Shown here piece after piece: positions 6,019 through 62,340 of a stretch of DNA of 64,000 bases. The stretch lies in the NCBI GenBank assembly GCA_008632985.1, contig QPGO01000016.1, forward strand, positions 282,840 through 346,839, given 5' to 3'. Every line of letters begins with the position of its first letter. Position 1 is the first letter of the stretch. Both the position numbers and the translations under genes were made by a program. The stretch is from Psammoneis japonica. Lineage: Eukaryota. The notes under the pieces were generated by a model. The model searched no databases, was not told the origin of the DNA, and worked only from the letters and a program-made list of their open reading frames with translations.

Positions 6019-6337
6019 CGTCGACTTTCTTATGGATAGATGGATATCTTGAAAATGTGCGGAGAGAGGAGAGGCCTTTCCAACTTGCGTTTGTTGTTTT
6101 GCTTTATTAGTTTTGCTGTCGTTGTGTTTCGTTTGTCGTGTGTCGTTGCGCTGTTGGAATCCATAGCGCACAGAGGGACGGACAGTGAAATTTTATTAGA
6201 CCTGCTCTATCTACCGTACTGTAGAGAGTGCCAATGGCGTGGGAGCATCTCTACAGTGGAGTTAATGTTGATTTCATTGTTCGATCTCGTTCCTGTTGAA
6301 GACGAAGTTTTGGTGTTGATGAGTTGCTCAAGGAAGT

Positions 6338-7600
6338 TCATGGCGACATGATGAAATCAAGTGCCGCAGGAAAATGACATGTTCTGGCATCACACACCAT
6401 GATGGGATTTGAGATTGGTCTTTTGTTTGCAGAGATGCGGAGTTTCACGACGACTCCAAAACACGGGCCACACACACAGCAGGAAGGACCATGCTTGTGG
6501 AGGCAAGCAACACGAGGAAAGAGACCTGTCTTGAATCTGTGCATGTCCAATTTTAGTGCAGACTCATTTTTCACTGAGTTCCCCAAACCTTTTTGTTGAA
6601 CTGCCTGTTCTGTCCCCAGTGCTTGCAGCAATTTTGCCATCCCCAGCAACCCCCCTGCAGCAAGTTTGCCATCCCCAGTGACCCTCTGCAGCCACACCCA
6701 GTGAAAAAGAGCTGGCATGACGTGGAGCCAAACAACCCCAAGCATCCTTCTTGTGCTTGATGACAACTTCGTCAAAGGAACTCTCTCGTTCGTCCAGGAG
6801 TTTCTCAGCCTCATCCAGCATCAGTCCTTCAGCCATGCGAACCAAGCATTCAGCATCGTTGCATTCTCCCGGAGGAAAAAAGCATCCCATGCCACAGTGT
6901 TGACATCCTCGGAGACCACTGGGCTGAAAGTAGAAACACCAAATTGACGGGACGGTTCAACAAGCAAAAAGAAAAGAACTGTGATCCGTCCGACCCACAT
7001 CCGCTGCAGATTTTTGTCTTCAGAGCCCAACAAATCCTCCAGAGGCACTCCCAGGGCCTCATTGTCTTCATCATGCTTGTTGCAATGAGCATGGGGATGT
7101 TGTTCTGGAGGTCCACCCCAGCGCTCGGCACATGCCATGGGATGCCGTTGAGCCAGTTGCTCTTCCGCAAGATGCTTTGCGACAGCACGACAATGATCTC
7201 GTGCGCATTCACTGAGTCCAGAAGGAATTGTTTCAGGATCGTCATCATCTGTCTTGGGAGGCTGAGCAACAGGAATGTCTTGTCCGTTTTCAATCGTGGT
7301 GCCTCCGACACCACGGATGATGCACACTTGACATGGCAGCATGTTGGGTTGATTCCAAGCTGCCAAATCAAGACAGACAGACTTGTTGTGAAGGACTGCA
7401 CTCTTGTCCTTGCTGTTCTTTTTAAAACAAGCTCGCTGGCAGTCCACAGAGCAAAAGTGCGCAACTTTGCAATGGGAACAGCAGCACTTCAGGCTTGTCA
7501 TTTCTTGTTCTTGTTTGCCGCAGCCAAGACAGGCATGGCGAGGTGGAATCGGAGGGTCCAATGTGGGAACATGACGAGCAAAGGGGTTGTTCACAAACAT
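6338..7600 (-). pseudogene. MYND zinc-finger gene, TpA-hypermutated
   Basis: CLGCGK..CSHCKVAHFCSVDCQR..H..VC MYND pattern; no Tyr in the 259-aa ORF 6821-7600; TGA at 6821-6823 with a further in-frame ORF (6338-6814) downstream. Confidence 0.65.
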
Positions 7601-7637
7601 GGTTGTGTTTTGAAATAAAGAGTGAAAACAGAAAAGC

Positions 7638-8836
7638 TGACAGGATTTGAGCAGGATTTAGGTGCGCGCGAAATGTCGCGCGCTGTTTAGTTTGCTGTGC
7701 ACAGTTTTGTGTGCTTTAGTTCCGCGCGTTCGCGCGCGATGTAGTTTGCTTTCGAGCCACAAGGCTCACAAGAATGAGGCTCGGTCTGCAGGTGAACCAT
7801 GCCGGATCGGATTGCCAGATCGGATTGCGTCAGAATTCCGTCAGTTGACAGGTGGAACCGGGTCGGATCACAGATCGGATTCGACATTTTGATGAGTCGC
7901 AAAACGATGTAAGTTTCAAGATTCCAAATTCTCAAGAACAACAAAGCTGAAATGGCGAACAACAGAGAGAGTGTGGCCATGATGCTTCACATCTTGTCAT
8001 GATGAGACGATGTGACAACAGAACTGTGCTGTTGTTGCTGCTTTACATGCTCACTTGACCGCATCATTGAGCATCATTGTCACTCAGTGTTTGCAGCACG
8101 CTGAGGAAGAAAAAGCCATCACTTTTGCAACTCAGAAACTGACGCTGTGTTTTCGCATTGAAATTTAGAATTGCATGACAAACACTTGTTGTTTTGCTCA
8201 TTCAATGTTTCTCCAACAAATCTTTACGGCATCATCGGTTTGACAAGCTGTTCTGTTGCCACACGACCTTTTTCATCTCCATTTCAAGCATGGGAAGAGC
8301 AAGGCTGCAATGCTGAGGAAGTTCTGTGCCCTCATGGCTGAATGTTGTGCCGCCCTGTGTCACAATCGTGTGATGTTGCGCCATTGTCGTGATGACGGCA
8401 TGGAATCTTCCAAATTCGATCCGACATCTGATCCGGATTTTCGGATCGGACGGTCTTCGGAGCAAAATGTTTTGCTCCGAAGACCGTCTGATCTGAGATG
8501 GCAGATCAGTCCCACGAAGGCCACGGATCAACTTTTTGACTTGATGGACTGACATTTTAATGGGTCATGAAGGAGTCAATCCGGCGATCCGATCCGGCTC
8601 GGTTCACCTGTAGACCGAGCCTTTTTGACTCGATGGACTGACATTTTAATGGGTCACGAAGGAGTCGATCCGGCTCGGTTCACCTGTGGACCGAGCCTGA
8701 CAACAGCAGCCCGATCATGCAGACTCACACGTCTTTCGGCTCCTGCGACGGTCTCTGAGCGGAGACTCATCTGCCATTTGGACAGCAGCAAGGAGTCATT
8801 GTTTGAATTCTTGCCATTTGCCTTCAATTTCTGTCA
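7638..8836 (+). repeat. 5' LTR (7638-7777 plus 8701-8836), split by a TIR element
   Basis: The two halves align end to end with the 276-bp 3' LTR. Confidence 0.95.
7778..8697. mobile_element. Non-autonomous TIR element, PIF/Harbinger-like, inside the 5' LTR
   Basis: 21-bp TIRs GGCTCGGTCTGCAGGTGAACC / GGTTCACCTGTGGACCGAGCC; 3-bp TSD TGA (7775-7777, 8698-8700); empty site present in the 3' LTR; many subterminal GATCGGAT/ATCCGATC motifs. Superfamily call is inference. Confidence 0.9.
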
Positions 8837-9384
8837 GATCAACAGTCTTGCTCATTGTCAACCCATTGAGCAACCGCCATCGTCGTCGTTGATTTGCCGA
8901 CGACGCCATTTCAATTCTGCATGGACCTCCGCATGCATTCTACATACATCGGCAAGTCTGCGCGCATTCAACACCAGGCATCGGCAGGAATTTAACGTCA
9001 CCGTCAAGTCTCCTTGCCGCTGGACATCTGGATTGATTGTGCTGCCTTTTGTCGCTGAAGACATAAATTCAACGGTCATGTCCAAGTCTGTCCTTGATCC
9101 TCATCCCTTCACACACCCACTCAACGGTTGACGGTCAAGAACCCTGCACATTCAAGGATCTTCGTTGCTAAAGACACACTTGTGTGTGCATGTCTTCATG
9201 GCCAAGAACTTGCACCCACTCTTTGGACTGCGGCTTTGCTGCCACTCTACAAGCACACCGAGTCTGTTGCACCTGATCCACCCCGGACCACTGGTGCTCT
9301 GCAGTTCTGCTGGGTCCACGAGGACGACTGTGAGAGCAAGTGGCCGTGATTGCAGCCTGCGTTGGGGCGAGGGTGTTTTCCCAC

Positions 9385-10298
9385 GACTTGTTCCAGACTT
9401 AGGTGGCGCGCACATGCCCCTTTTCGCAGAAAAAATAATTTTTTAATGCTTTATTCAACACCTAACATATTTAATAAAATTGAATATATTAATGGCTTCT
9501 AAGTAAAATAAACAGAATAAACTCGAACAAACAAACAGCCAAACCGGCCATGGCTTTCAGTGACCATGACGGCCCACTTTTTTCAGCCTTATGGAAAATT
9601 GAATGTCATGACCAGGATCTCCGTATTTGATATAGTCTGTGTCATCAACAACAATAGTGAAAATGCTTGTTGAAGGCTGCAGCGCGGCACAATAATGCTA
9701 AATCTGTCAGCAACAACAATTGAGCCTCTATTCACTCACAATTTGCCTCTAAGGACCATTTCTTTTCTATTACCATGTATATTTCCTCAATATATTCGAC
9801 TGATTCAAGTGTATCAATCGTTTATGCCTTCTAAACCGTGAAAAATGGTCCGAAGTCGACGCCATTGCGTGGGCTGAGCTACACTTCTTCTCACGTCGTC
9901 CTAAACTTATTAATCAACGGATGCTTTATTAGATCCGTTGAGTGTAACTCGTATTCGCGTATATAAACAAAATATTAATTATGCTATGTTAAAGACTTAA
10001 TTTATATATATTAATAATATTTTATATGTTTCTTCTTACATTTAGGCATATATAAATCGCTCATCGGAAAATTCGAGCTCTCAACTTACGGTACAATTTA
10101 GCGACTAATGACTGAGTCCATCAACAGTTTCGAATACATGGGTACACGCACAAGACAATTCTGTATGTACCCATAAAAACACATTTGTAAATTGTTATGT
10201 TTTTACTATCGAAAATGGTGCCGCAAGTGTGGACCGCGCGTTTCATGCAAAAAGGGTCATTTTTTCGCGCGTGAGTGCACCCAAGTCTGGAACAAGTC
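9385..10298. mobile_element. Non-autonomous TIR element with 4-bp TSD
   Basis: 21-bp TIR GACTTGTTCCAGACTT(A/G)GGTG; TSD CCAC (9381-9384, 10299-10302); AT-rich non-coding interior. Confidence 0.88.
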
Positions 10299-10692
10299 CC
10301 ACGTTTGTTCGTTCGTCCACAGCGCCCAACGCCTGCGTCAGCTGGCCAGCCTGATCGGGAAATCCAACCGATGTAAAATGAGAACGGTTCGGGGGTCTTG
10401 TCCACCTCCAGTCAGCTTGCCTGCAGGGGTTTGCAACCCGCTGCTCCACTCGCAAGCAACCCAAAGCGCCACTGGCTGCGGGTTCGGATGTGCCAGCACA
10501 ACTCTACGGACCGGACAGGAAGTTCAGCACTTGACAACGAACGGGATGACACAGCCCAGCGACTTCTGATTTTAAGATGGTTCAAGATTTCAAGTCAAGT
10601 CTGTTTCAAGTCAAGTCTGTTCTCACCCAAGTTTCAAGTCTGCCTTCGCATCCCAACCAGAATCGCTTGTTCTGACACCGCTTTTGTCTGCC

Positions 10693-13600
10693 ATGGTTCT
10701 CACTCGTCAGCAACAAACTGATGGTTTCGAGCACCTTGTTGGAACCGTGCTTGCCCAAGGTGCTGGAAGCCCTCTTCGTTTGGCTTTGACCCACGACGGC
10801 ACGGACTCGCATCAAGAACTGTTCACGTTCATGCCGTCCCAAATCAACTCGCTTGAGTGCGACAACGGCACCAATGTGATCTCTTTGTCCCATGGTTATG
10901 AGAACATGTCAGCAGCTCTAGTCAGTCTGCACATTGTCAAAGCACACAAAGGTCTTGATGTTGCCAATGACTCCTCGTTGTTCACGCATGAGGAGTTCCT
11001 TGCCTGCCGCCTCAGCCCCAACTGCATGTCGTCTGTGTCCGTCGGCAGCTCGCCCCTCGCACCTCCGCATGTCACGAACCCGACCAAGGCACGTGACCCG
11101 GTGCGAGACTTCAAGCGAGGCATCAAGCGTGACCCCACTGCTTTCACGGCTCTCAAATCCAACAAGCAGTGGCACACTTGGCACACCTCACTTGTGGCAC
11201 AAGCCCATGCCCAAGACGTCGAGTGCACCCTAGACTCGTCGTACAAACCGACCAGCCCCGAAGACAAACTGCTCTTTGCTGAACAGCAAAAGCACATGTT
11301 CGCCATCTTCGAACGCATCCTTCTCACCAACAAGGGCAAGGCTCTCATTCGCGAAAATGTGGGGTCTTCTGACCCCCAGACCGTCCACCGCGCCTTGTCC
11401 GAGTGTGCGCTTGCCTCCACCCGCGCATCTGTCGAGTCCTCCACCTTGCTCACGCACCTTGCCACCGCACGTCTTGGTGATGGTGCTTGGAAAGGTCCGA
11501 CCCACGGGTTCATCCTTCATTGGCAGGATCATTTGCGCAAGTGCGAGGCACTCATCCCGGCCAGTGACCACTTCTCTGAAGGACAGAAGCGCGTCATGCT
11601 CGAGAATGCCGCACATCCTGTCGAGGAACTCCGCGCCATCAAGAACCAAGCTGATCAGCATCGCGCGCAGAGTGGCAAGAGCCTCACACATGATCAACAT
11701 TGTGGCTTGCTCCTCTCCGCGGCGGCCCAATGCGACAGCGCGTTTCAACCCAAGACAACACCTCGAGCTCCCCGACACACCACATGCGCGCACAACGTCC
11801 ACTCCGAGGAGCCATCCGATGATGTGTTCCATGACATCAACAGCGACATTGACGTCCTTCAGGCCAACGCTGCCTGCACTCGCGGTCCCAGCCTCACCGG
11901 TGACCAATGGAAATGTCTCCCCCCCGACCACCAACGGATTTGGGATTCGTTGCCCCACTCCTCCAAGGCGATCATCCTTGAGCATTCTCGTCCGCCTCCC
12001 CGCAACCCGCGAGCCAGCAACTGCCATGAGTCCGTTGCGGCCAACCTTCACAACCAACAACTTGGGAGCGACGGTGATGTCAACTTGTCCAACACGACTC
12101 CTGCTGACTCTGGTGACCCCGCTCCAAATGTGGACGCCACTTCAGACAATCCCATCCTGGTGCACCTCACCAATCGCAAGCCACTGCCACCCGGTGATCT
12201 GCACCACCTGTTGTCTCCTGACCAAGCCTCCAATGCCAGTCGACTGGGCCCATCCGCCACTCCCTCTACCTTGCCTGCTCCCACAGATGACGTGGAACTC
12301 AACGGCCGCACTTGCCGCCGCGTTGACAACCACAATGTCGTTTGCTCTGCCTCCGCTCATCGCTCCACACGCGCTGGTGCTCCAGTCGATCGTGGAGCCA
12401 ACGGCGGCGTTGCTGGCGATGACGTTCGCGTCATTGCATGCACCTCTTGCCAAGTCAATGTTCAGGGCATTGACGACCATCAATTGGTGGACATCCCCAT
12501 TGTCACCGCTGGTGCCGTCATTGAGACACAGCGTGGTCCCGTCATCGCCATCCTCCATCAGTGCACATGCATGGGAAAGGGCAAGACCATTCACTCCTGC
12601 GGCCAGCTCGAATGGTGCAAACATGATGTCAACGATTGCTCTGTCAAGGTGCCCAACAGCTTGCAACGCACCGCCACCCCTGATGGCTGTGTCATCCCAA
12701 TTGACATCAAGGGCAGCCTGCCTTGCACTGCCATGCGACCCTGCACTGACGCCGAATGGGACACCCTGCCCCATGTCATCCTCACTGGTGATGACACATG
12801 GGACCCTTCCGTCCTTGATCACTCTGTCACTGACGACGACCAGTGGCACGACGCGATCTCTGACCTGCAGGACGATCCCACTGCCAACCTGTTTGATGAA
12901 TGTGGCAACTGCCGTCACCGTGTCGTTGTCAACAAGGCCATCATGTCCGCCTCCTTCTCTGCCGATCACGCGTCCGCCCTCGATGACCACCTCATTCCGA
13001 ATGACGACGTGTTCTGCGAGTGTCATCTGCACGCGATTGACCCCAAGGATGACAATGTTCCAACCCCGGAGCGCACTGTGCAGCCCAAGGACCCCCCCTT
13101 CGAGTCTCTTCGGCCTTGCTTTGGCTTCCTGCCTGCCGATGCGGTCCGTCGCACTTTTGACTGCACCGCGCAGTGCGTCCGCATGCCCGCCGGCACACAC
13201 CTTAGGAAGGCCTGCAAATCACCCAACCCCACCCTTAATGTGCACCGCCGCAACGAGCCTGTTGCCACTGACACCATTTGTGCCGACACCCCGGCCATCG
13301 ACTCTGGTCACACCAGCGCCCAACTGTTTGTTGGCACCGAGTCTACCGTCACTGACGTCTGCGGCACCAAAACGGACAAGGAGTTTGTCAACACACTCGA
13401 GGATCAGATCCGTGAGCGTGGTGCTCCATCCAAACTCATTGGCGACCGTGCTCAAGTTGAGATCAGCAACAAGGTGCTCGGGATCCTACGAGCCCTCTTT
13501 GTCTCCAGCTGGCAAAGTGAGCCTCACCAGCAACACCAAAACTTTGCCGAACGTCAATGCCAGACCGTGAAGCACATGGCAAACACTGTCATGGACCGTT

Positions 13601-16600
13601 TCAGTTCGCCTGCCCACACATGGCTGCTGGCGCTCATGTGCGTGTGCTTCATGCTCAACCACACAGCATCCCCACATCTCCACTGGCGCACGCCCCTCGA
13701 GACTCTCACTGGCTCCACCCCGGACATCAGCCCATTGCTTCGCTTTCACTGGTGGGAACCTGTGTGCTTCCACCTCGATGACTCCAATTGGCCGTCCGAA
13801 TCCCGTGAGTTGTGCGGACGCTTTGTTGGCATTGCTGAGCACGTCGGCCACCAGATGACCTTCAAGATTCTCTCTGACGACACTCAGAAGATCCTCTGCC
13901 GGTCCAACGTACGATCCGCTGCCACCGATCCTGCCGTTTGAAACCTGCATCTTGATCCTCCTGATGGGGAGCCACCTGAACCCATCATCAAATCTTGCCA
14001 TGACGACAACCCCGTCGATTCACCCAATGGGGAGATCAGGACACCCAAGATGCCAGTTTTTGATCCGCAAGACATCATCGGACGCACCTTCCTCATGCAG
14101 CCACAAGAGGACGGACAATGCCACAGAGCTCGCATCGTCAAGGCCGTTGAAGACCACGAATGGAAAGTGAACGGCAACCCTGAGCTCACTGAGTTCGTCT
14201 GCTCTGTCAACAACGATGAATGCGAGGAAGTCCTGGCCTGCAAGGACATCATGAATCACATTGAGCAAGAAGACGAAGACACTGCTGTTTGGAAATTTCG
14301 ACGCATTGTGTCACACGAAGGACCTCTGAAGCCTCATGACCCAACCTGGAAAGGCTCAAGCTACAACATCATGCTTCAATGGGAAAGTGGGGAGATCACG
14401 TCCGAGCCTCTTGCCATCATCGCCAAGGACGACCCTGTCACCTGCGCCATCCATGCACGAGAGAACGGACTTCTCGACACTGATGGCTGGAAGCGGTTCC
14501 GCACCATCGCGAGGCGCCAGAAGAAGCTGTTCCGCATGGCCAACCAAGCCAAGCTTCGCTCCTTCCGCACTGCACCTCGCTGCAAGTGCGGACACGAAGT
14601 TCCCCGGAACTGCAAACACGCCATGTCACTGGACGAACGCAACGGCAACCGCAAATGGGGAGACGCAACTAATCTCGAGATGGACCAACTCGATGAACAC
14701 GAAGTCATTCATGACTGCGGGCCCTCCGAGTCTTCCACTCCTCCTGCAGGACACAAGAAGATCCGAGTGCACCCGGCGCACGACGTGAAACATGACGGCA
14801 GCCACAAGGCACGACTCACAGCCGATGGGCACCTCACAGATGCACCCATCGACAGTGTCTGCTCCGGAGCAGTCTCCCTCCGTGGCCTTCGGCTGATGAT
14901 TTTCCTGGCCGAACTCAATGAGTTGGAGACATGGGCCACCAACATTGGCAATGCCCACCTTGAAGCCACCACCAAGGAGAAGCTGTGCATCGTAGCTGGA
15001 CCCGAATTTGGCAAACTCGAAGGCCACATTCTTGTCATCCACAAGGCCCTGCATGGACTGCGCAGCTCCGGCCTCTGCTGGCACGAGCGCTTCGCCGACT
15101 GCCTGCAAGCTGAAGGTTTCTTCCCCTGCCGTGCCGAACCCGACATTTGGATGTGCAGGAACGGCGACCACTGCGAATGCATTGCCGTTTGTGTGGATGA
15201 CCTCGCCATTGCCATGAAGGATCCTCAATCTTTTGTCGACACTCTCACGGAAAAGTGCAAGTTCAAGCTTGAGGGCACGGGACCGATTGAGTTCCATCCA
15301 GGCTGTGACTTTTCCCAGGATCCTGACGGTGCCTTGTGCCTGTCTCTGCGCAAGCACATCGAACGCATGGTCGACAGCTGCACACGACTGTTTGGGGAGA
15401 AACCTGCCACCAACGCCCTGTCACCTCTGGAGAAGGGTGACCACCCCGAACTGGACACTTCCGAACTGCTGGGGCCTGATGGCATTCAACAGCTCCAGTC
15501 TCTTGTTGGTTCACTCCAATGGGCAGTGTCCCTTGGCCGAGTTGACATTGCCACGGCCATCATGTCACTCTCTAGCTTCCGAGCTGCGCCCCGTCAAGGC
15601 CACTTGGATCGTGCCAAACGCGTCTGTGGGTGCCTCTCCAAGATGCGACACGGCGCTCTCCACGTTTGCACGGAAGAGCCCGACTGTTCGGATCTCCCTG
15701 CTCCGGCCCATGAATGGATGCATTCCGTGTGCGGCGAGGCAGAAGAGATGATCCTGAAGGACGCTCCACCGCCCCTTGGCAAGTTCGTCACCAGACGTGT
15801 TCCAGTCCCAGGTGACGCACAAAACAACAATCAGATTTTGAATGTAATTTATGCACATTTTAGCGCACACAGCATTTTGACAAAAATGCTCAAAGGGATT
15901 GACTTTTGTGGGCTTCTAGAGCATGAACATTTAAATGGTTTTTTGAGGGGCATTCAAATCCTCATGGGACATGTGTCACAAACTTCCTCAGCAGACTCAA
16001 TGCTGATTGTGCGCCAGCAGATTTACACTGAGATTCTTTTGCAGGTAGAAAACCTGCCAAGTGGCATCGCAGGAAGACACATTTAGGTGACATCCAAATG
16101 ACGGCAATGTTTTCGCCGAAAATCATCCGTTGTGTTACGAATCTTTTCACGCAATGAAAAACACAGATGGCACAACAACAATGACATTGCAACACTCACA
16201 TGAGTCTTGTCAGTGTTGCAAAACATTTGTGTTTGTACAAATCTGTGCTTTTGGTGGTGAAAGTTCGATCGCAAGTTAGGGACCGCGCAAAAATCGTGCA
16301 AATGTCGTTTTTGTGCACGATTTGGTTCACGTGCGGCTGGAACACGTCACCACCACCCACTGCGTCAATGCAAACTTGCACCATTGCATGCTCACCGGAT
16401 GCTCTGTCATGGGAATGCTCCACTTCCTCAACAAATTCCCTGCTGATTGGTTCTCTAAGAAGCAAGCCACCATGGAGACTGCGACCTGCGGGTCTGAATT
16501 TGTTGCCGCAAGGACTTGTGTCGAGCAGATTGTCGACCTGCGCATCACCCTGCGCTGCCTCGGCGTCCCGATCCGTGACATCAGTTGCATGTTCGGTGAC

Positions 16601-16921
16601 AACAAGTCAGTTGTGGACAGTGCCACCATCCCGCACTCCAAGTTACACAAGCGACACACCGCACTGTCGTTCCACCGTGTGCGTGAGGCAATTGCCTCTG
16701 GTCACCTTGAGCTCCACTTCATCGAAGGATCCCGCAACCCTGCTGACATTCTCAGCAAGCATTGGGGTTGCTCCCAAGTCTGGGACCTTCTCCACCCCCT
16801 CATGTTCTGGAACTTCATTCCATCCGAAGTCGAATCTGTTTCTGTGACTCCTCAAGCAAACTGGGGAGTGACAGGATTTGAGCAGGATTTGGGTGCGCGC
16901 GAAATGTCGCGCACTGTTTAG
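10693..16921 (+). pseudogene. Copia gag-pol polyprotein, inactivated
   Basis: gag FKRGIKRD; protease VDRGANGG; integrase VATDT..GDRAQVE..SEPHQQHQNFAE; RT KARL, NIGNAHL, KALHGL, VCVDD; RNase H SKKQATMETATCGSEF..NPADILSK. In-frame TGA at 13939-13941 (likely CGA->TGA) and an insertion at 15794-16348. Confidence 0.95.
15794..16348. mobile_element. Non-autonomous TIR element with 4-bp TSD, inserted at the start of RNase H
   Basis: 12-bp TIR GACGTGTTCCAG; TSD ACCA (15790-15793, 16349-16352); removing it restores the frame GKFVTTTHCVNANL. Confidence 0.9.
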
Positions 16922-17144
16922 TTTGCCGCGCACAGTTTTGTGTGCTTTAGTTCCACACGTTCACACGCAATGTAGTTTGCTTTCGAGCCACAAGGCTCAC
17001 AAGAATGACAACAGTGGCCCAATCATGCCGACTTGCACGTCTTTCGGCTCCTGCAACGGTCTCTGAGCGGAGACTCATCTGCCATTTAGACAGCAGCAAG
17101 GAGTTGTTGTTTGAATTCTTGCCATTTGCCTTCAATTTCTGTCA
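16869..17144 (+). repeat. 3' LTR (276 bp)
   Basis: TG...CA ends, preceded by the PPT and followed by the TSD. Confidence 0.96.
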
Positions 17145-17536: not shown

Positions 17537-19014
17537 ATGGGAAATAATCAATCCTCGTCACAAGAACAAACAAACAGCGACAACGCTCCACCGCCGCAGC
17601 TCCTCCACCTCGTCCCAAACACTTGCTTTGGGGTTGTGAAACGGCCGACGAACACTATGCCGCCATGGAAGAGGCTTGTCGACTCGCGAGCGAGTATCAT
17701 GGAGCAAAGGGTCTCGAACAATTGGGATTTGAGTATCGCATGGTTCACGCGCACCCGTGCGATTGTGGAGCTCATTCAGATGTCGATGTCGAATCGTGGA
17801 GTGATGACGACAATTCTGTAGCAGCCGAGGAGGAGTATGAATCTGAAACAGAAGAATTCATGATTCCACTGGGAGAAGCCATCAAGGATCATTTACCCCC
17901 AGAGGGTGGGACGTTTGTGGAAATGGAACGATCCGCGTCGGGCAACATTCGAACACCACCGATTATGCATAGAACACAGAGCTCGGCAAGTCTCTTTTCA
18001 CTTGCAACTCATCATTCCATGGGAAGCAGTGTTACATCGTCCTCCGAACAGTTGGGTCCACCCATGCATATTGTACAGGGTCATGAGCATAATAACGTGG
18101 ATCACGAAACGTGTGCCATTCGATTGTTTCATGTTGCATCTGGCGTCTTGGTGACGGAAAAGAATCATCAAACATTTGTGGCACACGGGAAAATGTATGA
18201 CGAAATTGCACGACTGTGTATGGAATTTGCACAAGATTTGATTATAAGTGAAGGCGATTTGGAATGGATGACGATTCGCAACGAGGAACCCAAAATTCGT
18301 GCACTCGTGAGTCGAGATTGCTCTCGCAAACGGACGCTTCTCGTCGTGACGGGAAAGGGCAAGGTGGGTGCTGGTATTTTTTCACGACGGCTCCTCATGA
18401 CGCTGGGGATCGAACCAGCGTCGGCCTTGCCCTTTGTACGAGAAGCGGTAGCCCGAGACATGAACATTGTCGTGTTGGATCCCAATTGTCATGGGACACA
18501 GACCGCCATGCAAGTGGTCGAAACGAGTTTGGAGAGGCTGTTTTGTAAACAATGCAATGATGAATTTTACTTGCTCGCGCACAGCATGGCCGGGTCTCAA
18601 CTTGTACGATATTTGCTCAACAAGGCGGAAAGTACCGTGACTGAGAACAAACCCGCTCGGAATGCCGCAAACGAAACGGCTCCTGCCGTGGATCAATGCG
18701 TCAGGCAATTCAAAGCGGTCGCCTTTACAGATTCCAACCACAATATCAATTGGGTCAAAAAGTACCCATCCATATCTAACTTTTTAGTGGGCCCCCGCAG
18801 TTTGTACATCAAGTCGCACAAGGTGCATCAAGATGCCAAGGCACTCGGAGAGGCACACCATGACTGTCAGTACTGGCGGCATCGATTTGGTGAAATTCGA
18901 ACCCTTTGGGCAGGGACCAAGGAACACGCTTTAACCAATTACACGGCACGATTTCACATTTGGAGGCATTTTGATTCGTTCCTCAATGACGATGGTGACG
19001 ACGGCGTGGAATAG
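17537..19014 (+). CDS. Arb2/FAM172A-like alpha/beta-hydrolase-fold protein; one frameshift near 17590
   Basis: LLVVTGKGKVGAGIFSRRLL..SALPFVREA..IVVLDPN, AHSMAG and VAFTDS match the FAM172/Arb2 pattern; the MGNNQSS start (myristoylation-like) is in another frame. Confidence 0.8.
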
Positions 19015-23295: not shown

Positions 23296-24049
23296 CAGAA
23301 AAGGACTTTTTTTAATACTACAACACAATGGTATATCTAACAGCAGCACCAACAGCGACACAATACACACAGTAATGTCAAAGATGATAGGCCCTTTGCA
23401 GGTGTTGTTGTGTTGCTGTCTCGTTTCGTTATGCAGGAAAAAAAGATCGCGCAAAGATTCAATCTTATTGTATACGAAAATTCAAACATAATAATAAAGA
23501 ATTGTCTCTCAGTACGGAATTGTAAGAATGTGTTCAGGAACAGTCGCACGCACGGCGGTCAGATGTAGACGAGCGGAAGAGGTTGTTGATTGCGTTTTGC
23601 AATGATGATTTACGATTTCAGCCAGCCCTGAGCAACATTTTTTTCTGGAACAGCAGGTCTGCTCAGTTTCTAAACATGGTGACTCTCCAACAATGTGGAG
23701 TGTTGCAGTTGACCTCCACTCCCTTCTTGGTTGGCTGTTCCTTGCAGATTCTGAACTGACCGACGACAACGGCCTGCCAGCTGCTGCTGGCACAACCTCA
23801 GAGGTGCACGCCAGGACAGTGATGGCAACATGGCACCAGTCAGAAAAAAAACTGAGTGAAGAGTGATCCATGAGATCCTTTGACAACCAAATGTGCCAAC
23901 GTGTGTCCACTGGGTGTGTGACCACATGGTTGTGAAATGAGAAGAGAAAACTGTGAGGCAGATTGGCACGAGAGAGCTGCCAACTGGCCAACAGCAGATG
24001 AGGGGGGCACAACCACACAGCAGCCATTCAATGAAAGTGCCCCATCAAT

Positions 24050-24420: not shown

Positions 24421-24534
24421 TCAGTGCAGAGTTGGCAGCAAGCACACATTGTTCTGGCAAAAGCCATGATGTGCACAGTGGTCAAATGCAGGAGCCAAGA
24501 AGGCAATGTTGAGCATGCATTGTGCATGAATTGC

Positions 24535-25277: not shown

Positions 25278-25289
25278 ATGAACCTGCCT

Positions 25290-48069: not shown

Positions 48070-48774
48070 CGTGTCAAACAAACTAATGATCTACGCAGCA
48101 CAACCCTTTCAAAGTATGAAGAAGAGATTAGATCAAAGAAGTGTGAGTAAAGATACGAAATGAATGAATAAACATCAAAGTATGGGTCGGTGTCAGTCAC
48201 AAAATACCAATGCGAGACCACACCAGTCTGACCGATATTTCTCGCCACAAATCAAACACACAGCATAAACAAGATAGGGGATACTTTTCGTATCTATAAT
48301 AAAGAGATGACAGCAATGGTACGCAACAGAGGAGGTGCATTGAACGAATACACATCAAAGTATGGATCGTGTCAATTCCATGTTTTTTGGTGTTTCTTGT
48401 CGATACGAGAGAACGATGTTTCTCGACAAAGCCCCTACCCACAGCATACCCAAGACATGGGATATCTTTAGTGACTATTGTGAGTCGATACCAGCCAAGC
48501 GAGTCATCAGAAGAAGTGAAATGAACGAATAAATCAAAGTATTGGTTTTGCCGCTTGCCGCTCAAAAATGGCTGACAACAGCGAAGAGACCCATATTTTG
48601 ATTTCTACACAACGACAACACCGTTTCTCGCCAAACCAAGGACCTCACCTAACAGATCGACCTCCTAAAAGTAATATCAGCTTCTCCAATGAACGAAAAC
48701 GATGAAGAATAGCTCAAACAAGGCCGAGTATGGGTCGGCGCTGGCGTCATCGCCAAAACGAAATCTGCGATCTA

Positions 48775-50100
48775 TGCACGCGGTCCGGAAAAAAAGGGTC
48801 TGTGCGCGCAAAATCCCACGGATCGCGCGAAAGCCAATGTGATTTCTTGTTGGGCATCATGGCTCCAATGATCCAGAACCTGGGAGTGATCCAGAACACT
48901 TTGACTTTCTTGGAGTCCATGGCGGGGCTTCTTGCTTCTTGGCACACAGCCACTGGCTGGTGGCTGGTGACCCCTCCAAAAGTTTGTCTTTGCAAAGATG
49001 CTGCACATTGCTCGTGGCACATGACAACTTCAACTTCTTGGGAGGAGGCACGCCAGATGAAACTGCTGTGTTTGGGCCTTCGTTCAAGACAAACTCACCA
49101 CCAAGGATGGAGTGGAGTTTGTCCAACAAACACCAGCAGTGCACTTTGACAAGAGTGCCAAAGAAGCTGCAAAAGCAAGGGGGGTGGCTTCACTTTGCTG
49201 ACCCCAGCAGCATTGTTCCTTTTTTTGAGATCGTGGTCTCTTCAACCAAGTGCTCTGACAAAATGGTGCTCCCCACTGTCTCAATGAGGCAGACTGTCAA
49301 TCCACTTGAACGCTCCTCCTTGAAGAATTTTTCTTTGACATTTGCAGTTGCTTGTCACCAGGTGGTTGTGGGCATTGTCCAGAAACCCCTGTTGAGTGGT
49401 GCTTGTTTGATGTTCAGCATCACATTGTGACTTTAGAGAACCTTGAGCCTGGCACCTGCCTTGGCTTTGAGAGTGCAGCTCTGTCTTGGCAAATGGAAAT
49501 GTTGCTCACTCCAAATGTCCCACAAACAAGTCTTTTTGCAACATCTGTGGCACACCACCCTCACCCCAGTGGGGGCATCCACATTGGCCAAGCCTGCGCC
49601 CATGGATCAGTTTCCAGGATTGGAAATTCACTTGAACTTCCTCTCCAGGATGACAAAACTCTCAACTCAGTCCTTTCTCAGTCTGTGCTGCAAAAAAAGC
49701 ACTTGCTGGCAAAATGAAAGAGCTTGTCCCAAACTTTTCCCAGTGAGATTGCTGCCTTGGTTGTGCTCAGAGTCAGCGACATTTTGCAATCTCGTCCCAA
49801 GCAGCACAATGGCAATTCCTGCAAATTGTGCAGAGAGCGCACCAGTGGCTGCTGCTGCTGCTGCAAAAGCAAGTTTTTCACTGCCAACTGTTGCTGCATG
49901 CTGGAGGACAAGAATCCAAGTGTGATTCCTGCACCTTTGATTGTGAGTGCACGGTCAACACATCTGGAAACCTGTGCACCACAGGAGGTGGTTTTGGAAG
50001 CAATTCCATGATGGTGTGCAGGAATGAAAACAAGGCTTGTGGTCTTTGACAGTTTCATTCAGCACAAAAGCGCAACACCCGGTTGCTGTGAATGACCCAA
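48775..50100. other. TpA/CpG-depleted tract of unknown origin
   Basis: Essentially no TA over 1.3 kb; no recognisable domain or termini. Confidence 0.7.
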
Positions 50101-50496
50101 AACTGTTCTACATCGGCCGATCCAGCTCTAGACTCTAGAAATAACAGGAATGGCACTCGGCTTCAACACAAATTTTACAGGCATGCTTGTTCCATCATCA
50201 CATGCACAGTAGTATCCCTGCAGACGATTCACCACTACCTTAAATTTTCTCTTCAAAACACAAGTTCTAACCGATTGTTGAGCCTACCTTGCCATGTGCG
50301 AAACGAAGTGCTGTAGACGGCAGCTTATGGAAACTGTTTCTGACCCACCCCAAGTTCAATTTTATTCCTATAGAGAGTCTTTAGAGTAGCAGCACAACAT
50401 CTTATTCGCGCATTCACCTCCCTTAACAAGCGCTCTCAAAGGAATCGTTCGCAGCCTTCAAATTGGAAACTGGACAAACGTCGGACTACGTCAACT

Positions 50497-56291: not shown

Positions 56292-57830
56292 ATGTGTCGC
56301 TTTTGGATTATAAGTTCCGTCGTTGTTGTCTGCTGCTGCGTGGATTCATGGCGATATCCTCCGACGAGACAGGTTGTTCGAATCACAACAACAGCAAGGC
56401 CATGGAGAGATCTTCGTGGAGGAGGTGGAGATGAAAATGTGGAAATTATAGAAATGGAAGCAATCGTAACACATGGGAATGAATCAGACGAAAGTGTCAT
56501 GCGCATGACTAGCGGTGAAGAGGAACAACAAAATATCGAAGCTACAGAAGAAGAATCGGCAGAAGGGGAACAGTTTAAAGGACAGAATGATCATATTGAT
56601 AGTGAAGAGGATGAGGAAGTTTCGAGTACAAGTAGCAGCGATCAAGTCGGTGAAGAAGAAGAAGATGATGGAGAAGCTCTAGATTCTGATGAGGAGGAAA
56701 CAGTGAATGAGCAGACGCTGCAAGAGCAAGAACAAGCTCGTACTCTTGCAGCACAACTCCGATTAACTGGTAAGGAACTTCACGATGAAGGAAATTGGGA
56801 AAAAGCGGCGGAAACCTTCTATGAGGCATCGACCGTGTTGGAACAATTACCCGACGCGGCGGCAGAAGAATTGGCGACTTGTCGTCTGCACGAGGCACTG
56901 TGTCGGCTAAAGCAATTGGATTATGATGCTTGTGCCAAAGTTTGTAGTACAGTGTTGCAAGAAGGGGGGTCCACCATTCCGGCTGCCATTCAGGCACGAG
57001 CTCATCATCGACGAGCCAAGGCAAAGTTGGGTTTGGGGGATATGTCGGGTGCACTGGTGGATGCAAGGTCGGCAGCCTTTTTGGGTGATCGCAAGGCTGT
57101 TGCACTGTACGGTCGTCTCATGAGAGAAACATCCACCGGTGACGACTCGTCCTTGTCATCATCTCAAGAGGCTTCGTCATCATCGTCGTCGCCTCCAGCA
57201 CTGTTGAATGATTTGTTTCAAGGGCGCAATCCATTCATGCCTTCAAGTGGAGATGCCGGTTCCTCGGCCTTGATGGAGTCCCTTCTCAGCAAGAGCTCGG
57301 GATCAGGCAGCAGTGGCGGCAGTCCGTCACTGGGACCCTTGGGTGATTTGTTGCTGGGTGGAATGGGTGGCAAGAAGAAGAAAAAGGGTGATGGCAGCTT
57401 GGTAAAGTCCGTCATGAAGTCACTGTCGAAACGACTCGACGACGAAGACACACAAGAAACGATTTGTCAATATTTACAAAACACAGACTCGTCAAAATTA
57501 CAACGATTAGCAGACATGGCAGGCATGCCCTTGACGGATGCACAAGCGGCGCAGCTTGCCTCCTTTTGCAACGGCGTGACACCCAAGAAGATTCAAAAGA
57601 ATGTGAAACGAGGCAGAAGAGTGTGGTATGTCATTTCGATTGTTCGAAAAACTCTTAAAGTATTGGACAAGTACAAGCATATACTTGTCTTGTTGGCGTT
57701 AATATCATGGGTCAAGAGTGCAATATTGCGGCCAATGCCTATTAATAAAAAGGCAGCCAAGCAGGCCGCAAAGGAGGCGGCCAAGGAAGCTGCGAAATTA
57801 GCGGCGGAGAAAGCTCTGGAGGGCAATTAA
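56292..57830 (+). CDS. TPR-containing protein with signal peptide
   Basis: Acidic region, three TPR-like helical repeats, C-terminal TM segment. Confidence 0.85.
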   Translation: MCRFWIISSVVVVCCCVDSWRYPPTRQVVRITTTARPWRDLRGGGGDENVEIIEMEAIVTHGNESDESVMRMTSGEEEQQNIEATEEESAEGEQFKGQNDHIDSEEDEEVSSTSSSDQVGEEEEDDGEALDSDEEETVNEQTLQEQEQARTLAAQLRLTGKELHDEGNWEKAAETFYEASTVLEQLPDAAAEELATCRLHEALCRLKQLDYDACAKVCSTVLQEGGSTIPAAIQARAHHRRAKAKLGLGDMSGALVDARSAAFLGDRKAVALYGRLMRETSTGDDSSLSSSQEASSSSSSPPALLNDLFQGRNPFMPSSGDAGSSALMESLLSKSSGSGSSGGSPSLGPLGDLLLGGMGGKKKKKGDGSLVKSVMKSLSKRLDDEDTQETICQYLQNTDSSKLQRLADMAGMPLTDAQAAQLASFCNGVTPKKIQKNVKRGRRVWYVISIVRKTLKVLDKYKHILVLLALISWVKSAILRPMPINKKAAKQAAKEAAKEAAKLAAEKALEGN

Positions 57831-58072
57831 AATCGCTATGCTGCATAATATGTATTGATTGGGATTGCATTTAAATTTTCTTGCCGTGTAGCGTCTCAGC
57901 AAATCCCGGTCTCTAGCACCTAGCAAGCCTCTGCAAGAGAGCTGATATATTTTTGCGCAAATCCAGCTCAATTCTCACAACAATCCAGTATTGACAATGC
58001 TTTGTTTCTGAAGTGGCTTGTGTTCGTTGAAATACGGTTGCCCACCATACCCGCAAGCACGGGTTGGAGCTG
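57705..58072 (+). repeat. Direct repeat of about 370 bp, copy 1 (copy 2 at about 62305-62673)
   Basis: Covers the 3' end of the TPR gene, the intergenic spacer and the 3' end of the cyclophilin. Confidence 0.9.
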
Positions 58073-58504
58073 GCTCCATAAATGCAGAACGCCAACTGTG
58101 CTTCCCGTGCCTTCCCTCTCTAGTATCTCTCAACAAGAGTTCACAATCTGTTTCGATTTTGTTCACATACTCTACTCTCAAACGTGTCAGAGTTCAAGAG
58201 CATAGGATACTCCATTTCATTCCGATTCTCCCCACCAGTATCATGAAGATGGCCAATGACAACCATTGGGTTCCATCACAAAGGGATTCGATGAACGCAC
58301 AATGATATGGACAGGAGCATAGGTTCACTTACTCGAAAATGTATCTATTTGCGGTGAACGTCATACATTGTGCGTTGTAGGTGTTTCGTGATACAAGAAA
58401 GCCCTGTTCTCGATCTCTAGTAGTTAGTTCCTAGTAGTTCGCTCTGTTTCTCCCACCTATAGAAGCTGTGCAAGAAACTAGGCTAAATGTGTATTAATCG
58501 TAGG

Positions 58505-58803
58505 AAAGAACCCGTTTGATGGCGTATAGCAGACCAAAGAAGTTTCGAAAGCCGCACAAACCGGTATCGAGTCAATAAAATGCATAAGAATACCAATGTT
58601 TTGTGTAGTAAAGAACCCTTTTGATGGCGTAGCAGACAGAAGAAGTTTCGAGAGCCACACAAACCGGTGTCGAGTCAATAAAATCCATAAGAATACCAAG
58701 TTTGTACGTGTAGCAAAGAACCCGTTGGATGGCGCAGCAGACCAAAGAAGTTTCGAGAGCCACACAAACAGGTACCGAGTCAATGAAGTCCATATAAGAA
58801 TAC
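58505..58803. repeat. Tandem repeat, three units of about 105 bp
   Basis: AAAGAACCC..GATGGCG..AGAAGTTTCGA..GAGTCAAT..ATAAGAATAC at about 58505, 58610 and 58715. Confidence 0.9.
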
Positions 58804-58877: not shown

Positions 58878-60095
58878 TCAAACTCCATACAAGCAGGATT
58901 CCGTGAAAACACTTTCCGAGAGAGTGGCCGTTACCTGTGGAAGAGAAAGATCGCATGTGTCCTGCAGACATTGCTTAACAGCCAAGCAGGTTTTGGCCTC
59001 TGCTTCAAGTGTATCCTCTGCATCTTTGGGATCGCATTGCACCTGTGTGTAGTCAAAGTCTTGGCCGGGGCACATGAGGCCAATCGTAAGATTCGTTCCA
59101 GCAACCCCGCCTTCCGAGCATACTACCGACGGATCGGGAACAGCTTTGGCTGTTGTAGCAAAGGCACTTTGAGACGAGCCCCTGCATGCACACAAGACTT
59201 TCCACCAATTGTCCTCAGCAACAGATGACGTGCAGCTTATTTCACCGTCCCCGGCAATGGTGCAATTAGCAAAGTCAGAAATGCCCCAGAGCTCAATGGT
59301 GCCTCCTTCTCCACAAGACACAACCACACCAGGAGCTGAATCTTCGCACAGACCGTCAGAGCCTTTTACTGCATACCAATCAACTTGGAACATGGTATAC
59401 CTGGTGTTGCTATCGGGAGGTGGCTGCGTCGGTGGAGGTGTGCTGATGTTGGACTCATCTCCTTCATCATCGCTGACAACAACGGCAGCTACTACTGCAA
59501 TTGCAGCCAGCAAGAGAGCTAGCAATCCGAGCAGTACTAGCCAGCGCCTGCATCTAGGGGGCTTTTGTTTTTCTTCAGTATCTTTTTCTTCCAACATGAC
59601 ATCGGCACGTGGTGCTTCATTCATGATGCGCTTCTCGACTTGTGCCGCTACTCGAGCTTCAATCTCTGCCTCGTCGGGAGCGACTTCGGCGGCAACGAGT
59701 AGATCGGAAGTTCCCTCCGTCCTTCCTGCCTCCAATTCCTCAAAGTCATCTCGACGCATACCTGCATCCGAAGGTCTCAACCCGGCAACTGCAATGGCAC
59801 CTGGCATGGAAACTGCTTTTTTCATCACAGGAGCATGCTTCTTTTCACCGGTGGATCCAAAGCAGCTTTTCGTACTAGACTCTGCTCCAATTGCTGATGC
59901 GACACCCCCTGCGGGATACCCTCCCTCCTTGTTGCTACTGATTTCGCCGTGGTTCTGTCCTGCTGCGCTTGGGATGACCACAGCTGGCTTCCGTTCATCA
60001 TTGTCGATGGCTGTACGTCTTGGAATGGCAGGTGGCATGCGATCGTCCTCGTTGTCATCAATTCTGGATGTGGAGGAATAAGTCTTCATTTTCAT
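58878..60095 (-). CDS. Single-pass membrane protein with PGA motif and Cys-rich ectodomain
   Basis: MPGAIAV, TM segment, PPTQPP stalk, Cys-rich C-terminus. Confidence 0.82.
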   Translation of the reverse strand: MKMKTYSSTSRIDDNEDDRMPPAIPRRTAIDNDERKPAVVIPSAAGQNHGEISSNKEGGYPAGGVASAIGAESSTKSCFGSTGEKKHAPVMKKAVSMPGAIAVAGLRPSDAGMRRDDFEELEAGRTEGTSDLLVAAEVAPDEAEIEARVAAQVEKRIMNEAPRADVMLEEKDTEEKQKPPRCRRWLVLLGLLALLLAAIAVVAAVVVSDDEGDESNISTPPPTQPPPDSNTRYTMFQVDWYAVKGSDGLCEDSAPGVVVSCGEGGTIELWGISDFANCTIAGDGEISCTSSVAEDNWWKVLCACRGSSQSAFATTAKAVPDPSVVCSEGGVAGTNLTIGLMCPGQDFDYTQVQCDPKDAEDTLEAEAKTCLAVKQCLQDTCDLSLPQVTATLSESVFTESCLYGV

Positions 60096-60389
60096 GAACC
60101 AGATCACAGATGATCCCTTTTGTGCTCTTTCATTGAATCCAGCTGTGGTCGAGAAGTTGTTTCTTGTTCTGTTGTTTCGGGTAGTGTTGCTTCTTCGGAA
60201 TGAGACGACGGTGCTTTATTGTTTCCGCACACATTTTGATCCCGCGGCTTCAATGATTGCATGATAGATTGAAGATGATAGGCGATACGTTAGGCCGGCA
60301 ATCAGAATTTTTCGAAAGGCGGAAATGAACTGACGACTGACACCTTTTACAGTGCACGGGCAAAAGCCGCAGTCACAAGTTGAAGTTAT

Positions 60390-62340
60390 GTTGCGCTTTT
60401 GTCGTGTCTGGTGGCGGGTGTCACTTCTCCAGCGGGACCGACGCAAAGAATCCATCCGGAGGATGTTGCCCAGTGTTTTTTTATGGCAAATGATGCTGGC
60501 TTTCCACCAGACTTCTCAAGGACAGTCTTCTTGATGACATCCTCCTGCTCTTCACCCCTGGTGCTGTTTTTCATCTTCCCTTTTCAGAGAGGCCAGTGAC
60601 TCAAACACAAACTGCCAGGCCACGTGGGAGTGCTGCAAAAGGACAAGGCTCTCTTTTCCAGCGAACCGCCGAAGCAAGAGACACTGTCAGATGTTGGCAC
60701 ATGCTGACAGCACCTCATCATGACTGCAGGACCTGCTGCACTCTTCTTTCAGCTGTCTTTTTTTTCTTTTTTGTTGGTTTGGGGACACTTCTCATTGATT
60801 TTCCCAGCGTGTGCACAACATTGTCATTCCTTTGCAATGAGAGCCAATGGCCCCAGCCTGAAGAGGTTTGGGGCTGATCTGCTGCTGAGGGGCTGCTGCC
60901 ATTGCTGAAAGTGTGGCAGCTGTTTTGCCAAGGTGCTGTGGCTGTGTTGTCTTGTTGGGTTCTTGGCACCCAAAGCGCTGGTGTCGGGGTTGTCCAATGT
61001 GCAAACAACCTTCAGCGCAGCAGCAACCCCATTAAAACAAAAAAGAAGTTTGGGCAGTTGGATGAGTGTAAAAAGAAAGTGCAGGAGTTTTGGCCCAAAA
61101 CGACACCCAGAGGGGACATGTTGTGATCTTTGACAAAGTGCTTCTTCTGGCACATCCAAAGATGCACTTTTGCTTGAGCAGCAACTCTGGAAATCTGAAA
61201 AATCTCTGCAGCCATCTGTCCACAGGTGCTTGAGTGGCCCCTTCTCAACTTCATGGCATGTTTTGTCAAAGTGAGCTGTTGTTCCTGCATCTGATGTTTC
61301 TCTTGGTTTTGACCTGGCAGCAGCCCCAGCATTTGCTGGCAGATGAGGTGCTGCGTTGCACAAAAACAAGACAATGGGAAAAAAGAAAAAATCAATGAAA
61401 AGCTCCTGAGACTTGGTTGGGAGGAGGGTGGCACCTCTTGAGTTTGAGCTTTGGGCACATCAAGTGGCAAGCAACTCTCTGTGACCCAAGGCAACTGCTC
61501 TCTTCTGAGTGTTTCAGCTGGTCATTCCATCCTTTTTGTGGAGCAAGCCCCACATTTTTAATTTGAAAGGTGTGCTGATCTGTGCAATGAGGAGCTTTGT
61601 TTCAATTTTCAATGCCATCAGCCAGTGCATGGAACCTGCTCCCAGCCAGTCCCTGCCCAGCTCTCCTCATGCTTTGCCTCCTCCTGGGAGCTCTGAGCAC
61701 CAAGCACAGCAAAAAAACTGGGCTGAAGGATAAACTGCATTTGTGACAATCTTCAATCCAGCTTCATGCTTGCCATGTTTGCAAGTTCAGCAAGCAGAAG
61801 CTGCTCTGGTTTCTGCAAACTCACAACATTTCTGCTGGGGAACCGTTTGGCTCAACAATTAACTTCGCATCTGCCTTTTGCCAGGAGCCCCGCTGAAGGC
61901 ATTGAAATCTGTTTGACCTTGTCCAAACATCCTGCTCTGCACACTGCATGCATTGACTTGCTCTTTTGCCAGTGCTTCCATGTGCAAAACCCAACAACTG
62001 CCACCTGCAACAACAATGCTCCAGTTCTTCATGACTGCCCACACCGTGAGGGTTGAGACACCATCAGGGTCCCAACAGGTGTGGCTGGCAATTATGATTC
62101 TTGGTGTCCCCTCATGAAGGGATTTGAGGAACTCACACTTGAGTGGCACATCCCTCCTCTCGCTGTCTCCTGTGGGTCATTTTACTTGGGCACATGCACA
62201 ATCCTAGTTGGATCTGGTGTGGGTTTGATTTCTTTCTCCAATGCGTTGAACGATTTCGCCAGAGGTTCTCCCACTAGTTGTTGTTCAAGGCAATGGCGTT
62301 GATGTCATGGATCAAGAGTGCCACATTGCAGCCAATGCCA
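60390..62340. other. TpA/CpG-depleted tract of unknown origin
   Basis: Very few TA or CG; no recognisable domain. Confidence 0.7.

Follow-up and report, generated by a model that had tools for sequence, protein, structure and literature searches.

We describe here a 64-kb stretch of the genome of the diatom Psammoneis japonica (GenBank assembly GCA_008632985.1, contig QPGO01000016.1, positions 282 840–346 839 of the forward strand; hereafter the window, in whose own coordinates all positions are given) in which blocks of DNA lying between live genes have lost nearly all of their TpA dinucleotides. The host genes of the window encode a P-type ATPase, a glyoxalase, a pseudouridine synthase, an SDR protein, a kinase, a cyclophilin and proteins with CRAL/TRIO, DUF6824 and Arb2 domains. 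All five homologues of the SDR protein that are listed with an organism name come from diatoms (Nitzschia inconspicua, Seminavis robusta, Pseudo-nitzschia, Nitzschia sp. Nitz4 and Thalassiosira; 49–52% identity).

Six tracts nearly devoid of TpA

Two-state segmentation on TpA density delimited six tracts: tract 1 (6264–9399; observed/expected ratio, O/E, of 0.106 for TpA and 0.72 for CpG), tract 2 (10208–16918; 0.092 and 0.82, GC 55.8%), which is the internal region of a Copia element, tract 3 (23672–26712; 0.021 and 0.11), tract 4 (29417–37093; 0.046 and 0.24), tract 5 (48774–50108; 0.012 and 0.27), in which no content could be named, and tract 6 (60388–62182 by segmentation; 0.062 and 0.20), the right end of which moves to ~62372 on comparison with a paralogue. 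Together they amount to 23 695 bp and contain 86 TpA, whereas 815 would be expected at the O/E of the remaining 40 305 bp (0.578; Poisson P ~1e-234). None of the 136 background windows of 1 kb falls below a TpA O/E of 0.33 (range 0.33–0.93); 1-kb windows in the blocks have values of 0.00–0.15, and there TG and CA each reach 1.5–2.3. Per tract, the O/E of TG and of CA is 1.4–1.9 as against ~1.2 outside, the two counts are about equal in each of the six tracts, and the longest gap free of TA measures 1609 bp. The contrast in rate is regional (TpA O/E of 0.01–0.11 in the tracts), and at 37093 the state switches inside a single repeat unit. The tracts fill the intervals that separate live genes and stop a few hundred bases short of them. 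In these discrete islands, TpA has been converted almost to saturation into TpG or CpA, i.e. by A:T→G:C transition at 5'-TA.

A sequence-only reading of the same DNA, made before this analysis, had located the tracts correctly to within ~200 bp and had called the neighbouring intact genes normal in TA; its observation is confirmed. Its first tract was well placed but is not continuous, being broken by a TA-normal insertion (9385–10298; TA O/E 0.9).

CpG is strongly depleted in tracts 3–6 (O/E 0.11–0.27) and little in the Copia-bearing tracts 1 and 2 (0.72 and 0.82). A CpG O/E of less than 0.6 was found in no window beyond the tracts and their edges. This joint loss of CpG in four tracts did not figure in the sequence-only reading.

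Support from sequencing reads

Of the words sampled from 29000–38500, 87% are present in DNA run X1, which is probably from the same sample as the assembly. Its contigs span tracts 3 and 4 at a depth of ~55–90, compared with ~60 at the flanking genes, and each differs from the window by 0–4 letters in these tracts. The TG and CA bases noted in the sequence-only reading are thus found in the reads as well. Since X1 is probably the assembly's own sample, a mis-join or a consensus error is excluded, yet the support is not independent. Judged by X1 depth, most of the sequence of tracts 3 and 4 is single-copy at ≥90% likeness, the exception being 34339–36339. Cover by run X2, which derives from that sample too, is limited to parts of genes and is absent on tracts 3 and 4, an outcome that has no bearing on expression.

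Nine of the 30 listed places at which X1 differs from the window in the tracts are of the CpG/TpG type, and only one (34948) is CA versus TA; TpA targets are exhausted there. At several places of 23000–42999 (e.g. 25705–25754 and 29047–29077) X1 contains two alleles at about half depth. The half-depth alleles and the CpG/TpG-type differences suggest the presence of two haplotypes and a CpG decay that is still ongoing.

Direction and sequence context of the change

Background copies of sequences that also occur in tracts (37094–38030, 22823–23360 and 57694–58072) all keep normal TA, and the change could be polarized from background to tract. In pair (a), which compares the background copy 37094–38030 with copy 1 of a tandem duplication in tract 4, the 28 background TA correspond to 16 TG, 8 CA and only 2 TA in the tract copy, while none of 63 background TG and none of 86 background CA read TA in the tract. 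The A→G change was seen at 16 of 27 sites after T, compared with 3/85 after C, 3/98 after A and 4/67 after G (10/250 for the non-T contexts together; Fisher P 1e-12). Equal A→G rates in TA, AA, CA and GA, which the sequence-only reading had named as the observation that would speak against its proposal, were thus not seen. T→C changes amounted to 8/27 before A and 2/69 before C. In a second pair, the 5' region of the ATPase gene (22823–23360) was compared with its tract copy (26289–26802), and the 16 TA gave 7 CA and 6 TG with none kept. When three pairs were pooled, 38 of 47 TA had become TG or CA (23 and 15, respectively), three were kept and six read otherwise.

CpG sites in pair (a) also changed: the 39 background CG correspond to 14 TG, 9 CA and 13 CG, and C→T was found at 14/39 sites before G versus 4/171 elsewhere (Fisher P 1e-8). 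Decay of CpG to TpG or CpA is a second layer over the TpA loss in four islands, and points to methylation decay. The two processes are separable since TpA has gone from the Copia tract 2 at a CpG O/E of 0.82. The decay exponents in pair (a) were 2.64 for TA and 1.10 for CpG, with a divergence of ~5.5% (~0.055) at other sites. Judging from this one pair, TpA may have been lost roughly 50–100 times faster than ordinary sites changed, and also faster than CpG of the methylated type.

The TpA dinucleotides that survive in tracts are unusual in context. YTAR (Y, pyrimidine; R, purine) accounts for 45/84 of them as against 282/1660 in the background (P 2e-13), and those with A before or T after for 9/84 as against 840/1660 (P 4e-14). 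At polarized sites, the next base on the mutated strand was a pyrimidine in 27 of 38 cases and G in 2 of 38. The abundance of YTAR among survivors and the 3' pyrimidine at mutated sites indicate TAY as the preferred target, which is equivalent to RTA if it is the T that is altered. Converted sites switch between TG and CA without long runs on one strand, a feature that is uninformative at saturation.

A dead Copia element and an outgroup test

Tracts 1 and 2 contain a dead Copia-type retrotransposon (7637–17144, + strand) with 279-bp long terminal repeats (LTRs) that have TG..CA ends and are 93–94% alike. The 5' LTR is split (7637–7777 and 8698–8836) by a nested insertion (7777–8697) which has 44-nt inverted repeats and is itself TA-depleted (O/E 0.11); the 3' LTR lies at 16869–17144. 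The relic polyprotein frame (10576–16086, + strand) has one internal stop and an RVT_2 domain at ~14743–15378. 

The frame was aligned with 41 homologues (49–57% identity), a conserved Tyr column being one with at least 80% Tyr. In the 18 conserved Tyr columns, the Copia frame has 10 Cys, 6 His, 1 Trp, 1 Leu and not a single Tyr; the catalytic YVDD of its reverse transcriptase (RT) has become CVDD, and its overall share of Tyr is 0.42% as against 4.13% in the homologues. Conserved residues other than Tyr survive at ~60–100% (Gly 37/39, i.e. 95%; Pro 23/26; Arg 63%; Val 61%). Of 30 conserved Arg, 11 are changed, seven of them to Cys, His or Gln, the products of CpG transitions. Polarization of the Copia RT by outgroups supports TA→TG/CA as the direction of the change. 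The near equality of TG and CA in all tracts, together with the occurrence of Tyr→His as well as Tyr→Cys, indicates that DNA of both strands was altered and not a transcript; Tyr→His, for which T→C on the sense strand is required, has the frequency that would be expected. The paralogue pairs and the Tyr columns thus bear out the sequence-only proposal that TpA was converted to TpG and CpA on both strands, and in particular tracts only.

The insertion that interrupts the Copia sequence between tracts 1 and 2 (9385–10298) is a nested AT-rich element of 914 bp (GC 34%) with 21-nt terminal inverted repeats (TIRs) and an unmutated interior. Its two TIRs differ at a single base, so that one reads TA where the other reads TG. 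The left part of tract 1 (6264–7636) lies outside the Copia element and its origin could not be named. A degraded MYND zinc finger, suggested at 6824–7657 (– strand) by a Cys/His pattern seen by eye, was rejected: there was no Pfam match and no homologue at E ≤ 0.001. An open reading frame (ORF) with an Arb2 domain (17623–19014, + strand; E 1e-9) adjoins the 3' LTR. The Arb2 domain occurs in an Argonaute-binding protein of fission yeast; the position of the ORF beside the LTR is probably a coincidence.

The same footprint in other public Copia proteins

Among 120 listed homologues of the Copia ORF, protein P0112 has only 0.85% Tyr. Where L001, an intact relative (82% identical), has Tyr (36 positions), P0112 has 15 His, 11 Cys and 7 Tyr. 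A metagenome scan with P0112 returned eight loci (L001–L008), all intact and with a TA O/E of 0.47–0.70; the contig of P0112 itself was not among them. Four of 150 cluster representatives have less than 1.5% Tyr and more than 7% Cys plus His. In 7 of the 150, Tyr→Cys/His affects 44–87% of the Tyr positions of an intact relative, compared with 0–21% in eight controls. The public Copia-like proteins that are poor in Tyr and rich in Cys plus His are P0112, P0274, P0308, P0354, P0299, P0334, P0265 and P0327; their source organisms may include this species.

Contents of tracts 3–6

A Pfam run on the 119 tract ORFs of ≥90 amino acids gave a match in one only (the RVT_2 domain), and no viral gene was recognized. 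Since TAA and TAG are lost in the tracts, the long overlapping ORFs found there are by-products. The content that can be named consists of one Copia LTR element, three TIR elements and truncated duplicates of host genes. Thus, the statement of the sequence-only reading that every tract with identifiable content holds transposable elements (TEs) or duplicated genes is true wherever a name can be given, but for most of the sequence none can, and with a single Pfam match and the unnamed tract 5 the statement is verifiable only in part.

Tract 3 includes a degenerate tandem array (~24516–25286; periods of 28, 45–48 and 95 bp) with no TA and almost no CG, over which X1 contigs show rearranged joints. 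A further component, at 26226–26802 (– strand), duplicates incompletely and in mutated form the 5' end of the P-type ATPase gene next to the tract, together with the DNA upstream of it; the reference copy is 22823–23360.

Tract 4 contains a tandem duplication that is informative about timing. Copy 1 (31957–34208, + strand) lies entirely inside the tract and is fully mutated; its end (33286–34220) duplicates the first 119 codons of gene 37686–38348 and the region upstream of them. In copy 2 (34209–34449 and 36027–38030, + strand), mutation stops at 37093; from 37094, where the upstream region of that live gene begins, the copy is unmutated. Where both copies are in the tract, their choices of TG or CA are concordant at 205 sites and discordant at 7, as against an estimated ~30 discordances under independent saturation. 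This concordance implies that the shared part was mutated before the duplication, whereas the gene fragment of copy 1 must have been mutated after it, since beyond 37093 only copy 1 is mutated. From this comparison, the process acted at least twice in one island, before and after the tandem duplication.

Copy 2 is interrupted by a TIR element of 1577 bp (34450–36026) that has a TA O/E of 0.10 and, on either side, a direct repeat of 10 bp (GCTGTCAGCC). The summed depth of X1 contigs for its family is ~700 times that of a single copy. Of the 58 variant places found across 23000–42999 (20 kb), no more than 23 are of a type that could restore TA, and only one listed place does; the family thus appears poor in TA throughout. 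It has either been amplified from a purged master or is natively TA-poor. Family sequences as poor in TA as the tracts, named in the sequence-only reading as a sign against its proposal, seem to exist for this high-copy family only.

At the right end of tract 6, a copy of 57694–58072 (62294–62674) runs beyond the tract and is mutated only in its first ~80 bp. A 105-bp tandem repeat (58500–58803; 2.9 copies, 86% matches) lies in TA-normal DNA and adjoins an ORF at 58878–60107 (– strand).

Possible mechanism

On balance, we favour a TpA-specific A:T→G:C change on the DNA of silent islands that is made by an enzyme, likeliest a TadA/ADAT2-like adenine deaminase. Such an enzyme would be targeted to chromatin that is silenced and act on the DNA itself, and a deaminase (TadA/ADAT2-type or orphan), our leading guess, would convert A to hypoxanthine, which is read as G. 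CpG methylation would mark the same islands. The outcome would be an irreversible inactivation of transposons and pseudogenized duplicates, with Tyr codons turned into those of Cys or His, as in YVDD→CVDD. The tRNA substrates of TadA/ADAT2 have a universal U33-A34, and in the comparison with these enzymes only the preference for a 5' T matches. No deaminase is found among the genes of the 64-kb window, and any specific enzyme is a candidate only, as yet unsupported. Diatom TEs are reported to be CpG-methylated (PMC9998398), with which the CpG loss in the tracts is consistent.

Several observations weigh against this reading. The element at 9385–10298 is unmutated within a mutated Copia, so that either the process is no constant property of an island or the insertion is very young. 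Two neighbouring paralogous genes (42010–42955 and 43868–44819; 69% DNA identity, no Pfam family) are both unmutated, with normal TpA, so that being an old tandem duplicate does not in itself make a gene a target. The ~700-copy TIR family seems TA-poor as a whole, possibly by native composition. An origin as TE or foreign DNA is not established for most tract sequence, 118 of the 119 ORFs having no Pfam match. The sets of polarized sites are small (28, 16, 47 and 18 sites). Finally, deamination of adenine and chemistry on the thymine side leave the same sequence.

Modification of thymine is the main rival to adenine deamination, albeit one that we regard as unlikely. The T of TpA would be modified in silent chromatin, for example to 5-hydroxymethyluracil (5hmU) by a TET/JBP-type dioxygenase, and would mispair with G to yield T→C. 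This supposes mispairing of 5hmU with G at a frequency sufficient for saturation. Because TA is self-complementary, a change on the T side gives the same TpA→CpA/TpG pattern; the symmetric signature hides which base was altered, and the context reads as well as RTA as it does as TAY. A dinoflagellate TET/JBP homologue makes 5hmU, and the title of the article describing it ties this to TE silencing (PMC11572971). Early work is reported to have found 5hmU preferentially in TA and TC contexts, whereas a modern base-resolution map for Breviolum is without sequence preference (PMC11071213). In our data TC is not raised (T→C before C at 2 of 69 sites), and 5hmU or a thymine hydroxylase in this organism is hypothetical.

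It is far less probable that the tract sequences, being foreign DNA or TE families, lacked TpA from the start or were cleared of it by selection, with no mutation in place. The apparent TA-poverty of the high-copy TIR family as a family is what such a native composition would produce, and with 118 of 119 tract ORFs lacking a recognizable origin there is no ancestor to compare for most of the sequence. However, wherever an ancestor or paralogue is available it has TA where the tract has TG or CA (the three pairs and all 18 Tyr columns), selection would not destroy a catalytic YVDD, and the intact relatives of a second mutated Copia (P0112) have a TA O/E of 0.47–0.70. For tract 2 and parts of tracts 3, 4 and 6, native composition is already refuted.

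Error-prone synthesis by a Y-family polymerase (e.g. Pol eta) that takes part in the repair of heterochromatin and inserts wrong bases opposite T in WA motifs (W, A or T) seems about equally improbable. A:T→G:C at TA does belong to the WA signature of Pol eta. That signature includes AA as well, yet A→G was rare after A in pair (a) (3/98 versus 16/27 after T), and we infer that repair synthesis, being patchy, is hard to reconcile with kilobases of DNA in which almost every TA has been converted.

Even less credible is an editing of RNA that entered DNA, i.e. an ADAR-like change of A after U in retrotransposon transcripts fixed by reverse transcription. ADARs do favour U before the edited A, as noted in the preprint cited below (bioRxiv 10.64898/2026.01.13.699255), and one element in the tracts, the Copia, is a retrotransposon. 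However, editing of the sense strand would give Tyr→Cys and never Tyr→His, while His accounts for 6 of 16 such changes here and for 15 of 26 in P0112. The near equality of TG and CA in all tracts already contradicts a strand-bound process, and DNA that is not of retroelement origin is mutated too (duplicates of gene fragments, promoters, TIR elements and the tandem array).

An artefact of assembly or sequencing can hardly be entertained: a chemistry-specific error shared across the X1 libraries is formally conceivable, the sample being probably the same, but tracts 3 and 4 are recovered in X1 contigs that have the depth of genes and differ by 0–4 letters each, and the pattern follows biological boundaries and codon logic. 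Biased gene conversion was rejected as it would lack TpA specificity.

Comparison with known systems

Mutation of TpA has recently been measured in the chlorarachniophyte Bigelowiella natans (Mettrop et al., bioRxiv 10.64898/2026.01.13.699255). According to this preprint, 230 of 231 de novo mutations in integrated nucleocytoplasmic large DNA virus (NCLDV) and virophage sequences in mutation-accumulation lines were A→G or T→C on TpA, and only some lines were affected. The genome is described as having 124 clusters of 1-kb windows poor in TpA and rich in CpA plus TpG, RT and DDE domains are over-represented among its TpA-poor coding sequences, and the authors propose an ADAT2-like deaminase. The diatom case resembles it in the nature of the change (A→G/T→C at TpA), in the involvement of both strands, in the confinement to discrete regions and in being apparently not constitutive; the diatom tracts would represent a fossil form of the hypermutation measured de novo there. 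The differences are that in B. natans, a rhizarian, the mutations are de novo and the viral insertions keep many TpA, whereas in the diatom, a stramenopile, an end state near saturation is seen; that the targets are an LTR retrotransposon, TIR elements and truncated gene duplicates instead of NCLDV and virophages; and that CpG transitions form a second layer beside the TpA changes. The words CpG, diatom and stramenopile are missing from the main text of the preprint. The additions made here to the B. natans case may therefore be the co-depletion of CpG, the TAY/YTAR context and the occurrence in a diatom, although the figures or supplements of the preprint may hold extended context.

The sequence-only reading knew of no description in diatoms. 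Likewise, no diatom report of TpA loss or hypermutation was found in the literature searched (most subscription journals lay outside its coverage), but the process is not wholly undescribed, that of B. natans having been in print since 2026. A mutation-accumulation paper on Phaeodactylum tricornutum gives CG, CC and TG as mutagenic contexts and not TA.

In repeat-induced point mutation (RIP) of ascomycetes, CpA is changed to TpA, and mutation reaches every copy of a duplication over the length that is duplicated. The tracts are similar to RIP in their dense, context-specific transitions, in the irreversible killing of transposons and duplicates, and in a dinucleotide skew that comes in blocks. 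However, RIP creates TpA while the diatom tracts destroy it (0 of 149 TG/CA became TA and 24 of 28 TA became TG or CA in pair (a)), the live paralogues are untouched, and the boundary at 37093 falls inside a duplicated unit. These last two features and the mostly single-copy depth of the tracts indicate that the process is not repeat-induced in the manner of RIP. The framing as repeat-induced, suggested by the term 'reverse RIP' in the sequence-only reading, is thus unsupported; targeting follows silent islands, not repeats.

Decay of 5-methylcytosine accounts for CpG→TpG/CpA in tracts 3–6 (cf. C→T at 14/39 sites before G versus 4/171), but it cannot remove TpA and tract 2 is TpA-less at a CpG O/E of 0.82. 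APOBEC3 and ADAR are comparable as deaminase-type, context-specific hypermutation directed against mobile or foreign nucleic acid. APOBEC3 differs in changing C to U on one cDNA strand, whereas the diatom change is A:T→G:C at TpA on both chromosomal strands; ADAR converts A to I on RNA, whereas the diatom change is on DNA and includes non-retro sequence.

Implications

The mutational inference is well supported, and the diatom case joins a kind of process that was described only in 2026. More tentatively, it could represent a dedicated, DNA-editing genome defence that is shared by stramenopiles and rhizarians, perhaps ancestral to the stramenopile–alveolate–rhizarian group, in which a TA-specific base-modifying enzyme would act on silenced chromatin and remove TpA from transposons, integrated viruses and pseudogenized duplicates, and mobile elements would answer by purging TpA; the ~700-copy TIR family would then be immune through its TA-poverty.

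For sequence annotation, tracts without TpA bring spurious long ORFs (there being no TAA or TAG) and distort composition-based calls of genes and of horizontal gene transfer. The preference for TAY provides a yardstick for candidate enzymes, the diatom lineage offers genetically tractable model species, and a natural A:T→G:C editor of double-stranded chromosomal DNA would be of interest for work on base editing. To our knowledge, programmed mutagenesis of an organism's own silent DNA is hardly known in eukaryotes beyond fungal RIP and the deaminase defences of animals. Diatoms dominate primary production in the ocean. Coming after the report on a chlorarachniophyte, the saturated footprint found here suggests that a TpA-erasing process is widespread in diatoms, with targets that extend beyond viruses to retrotransposons, DNA transposons and gene duplicates.

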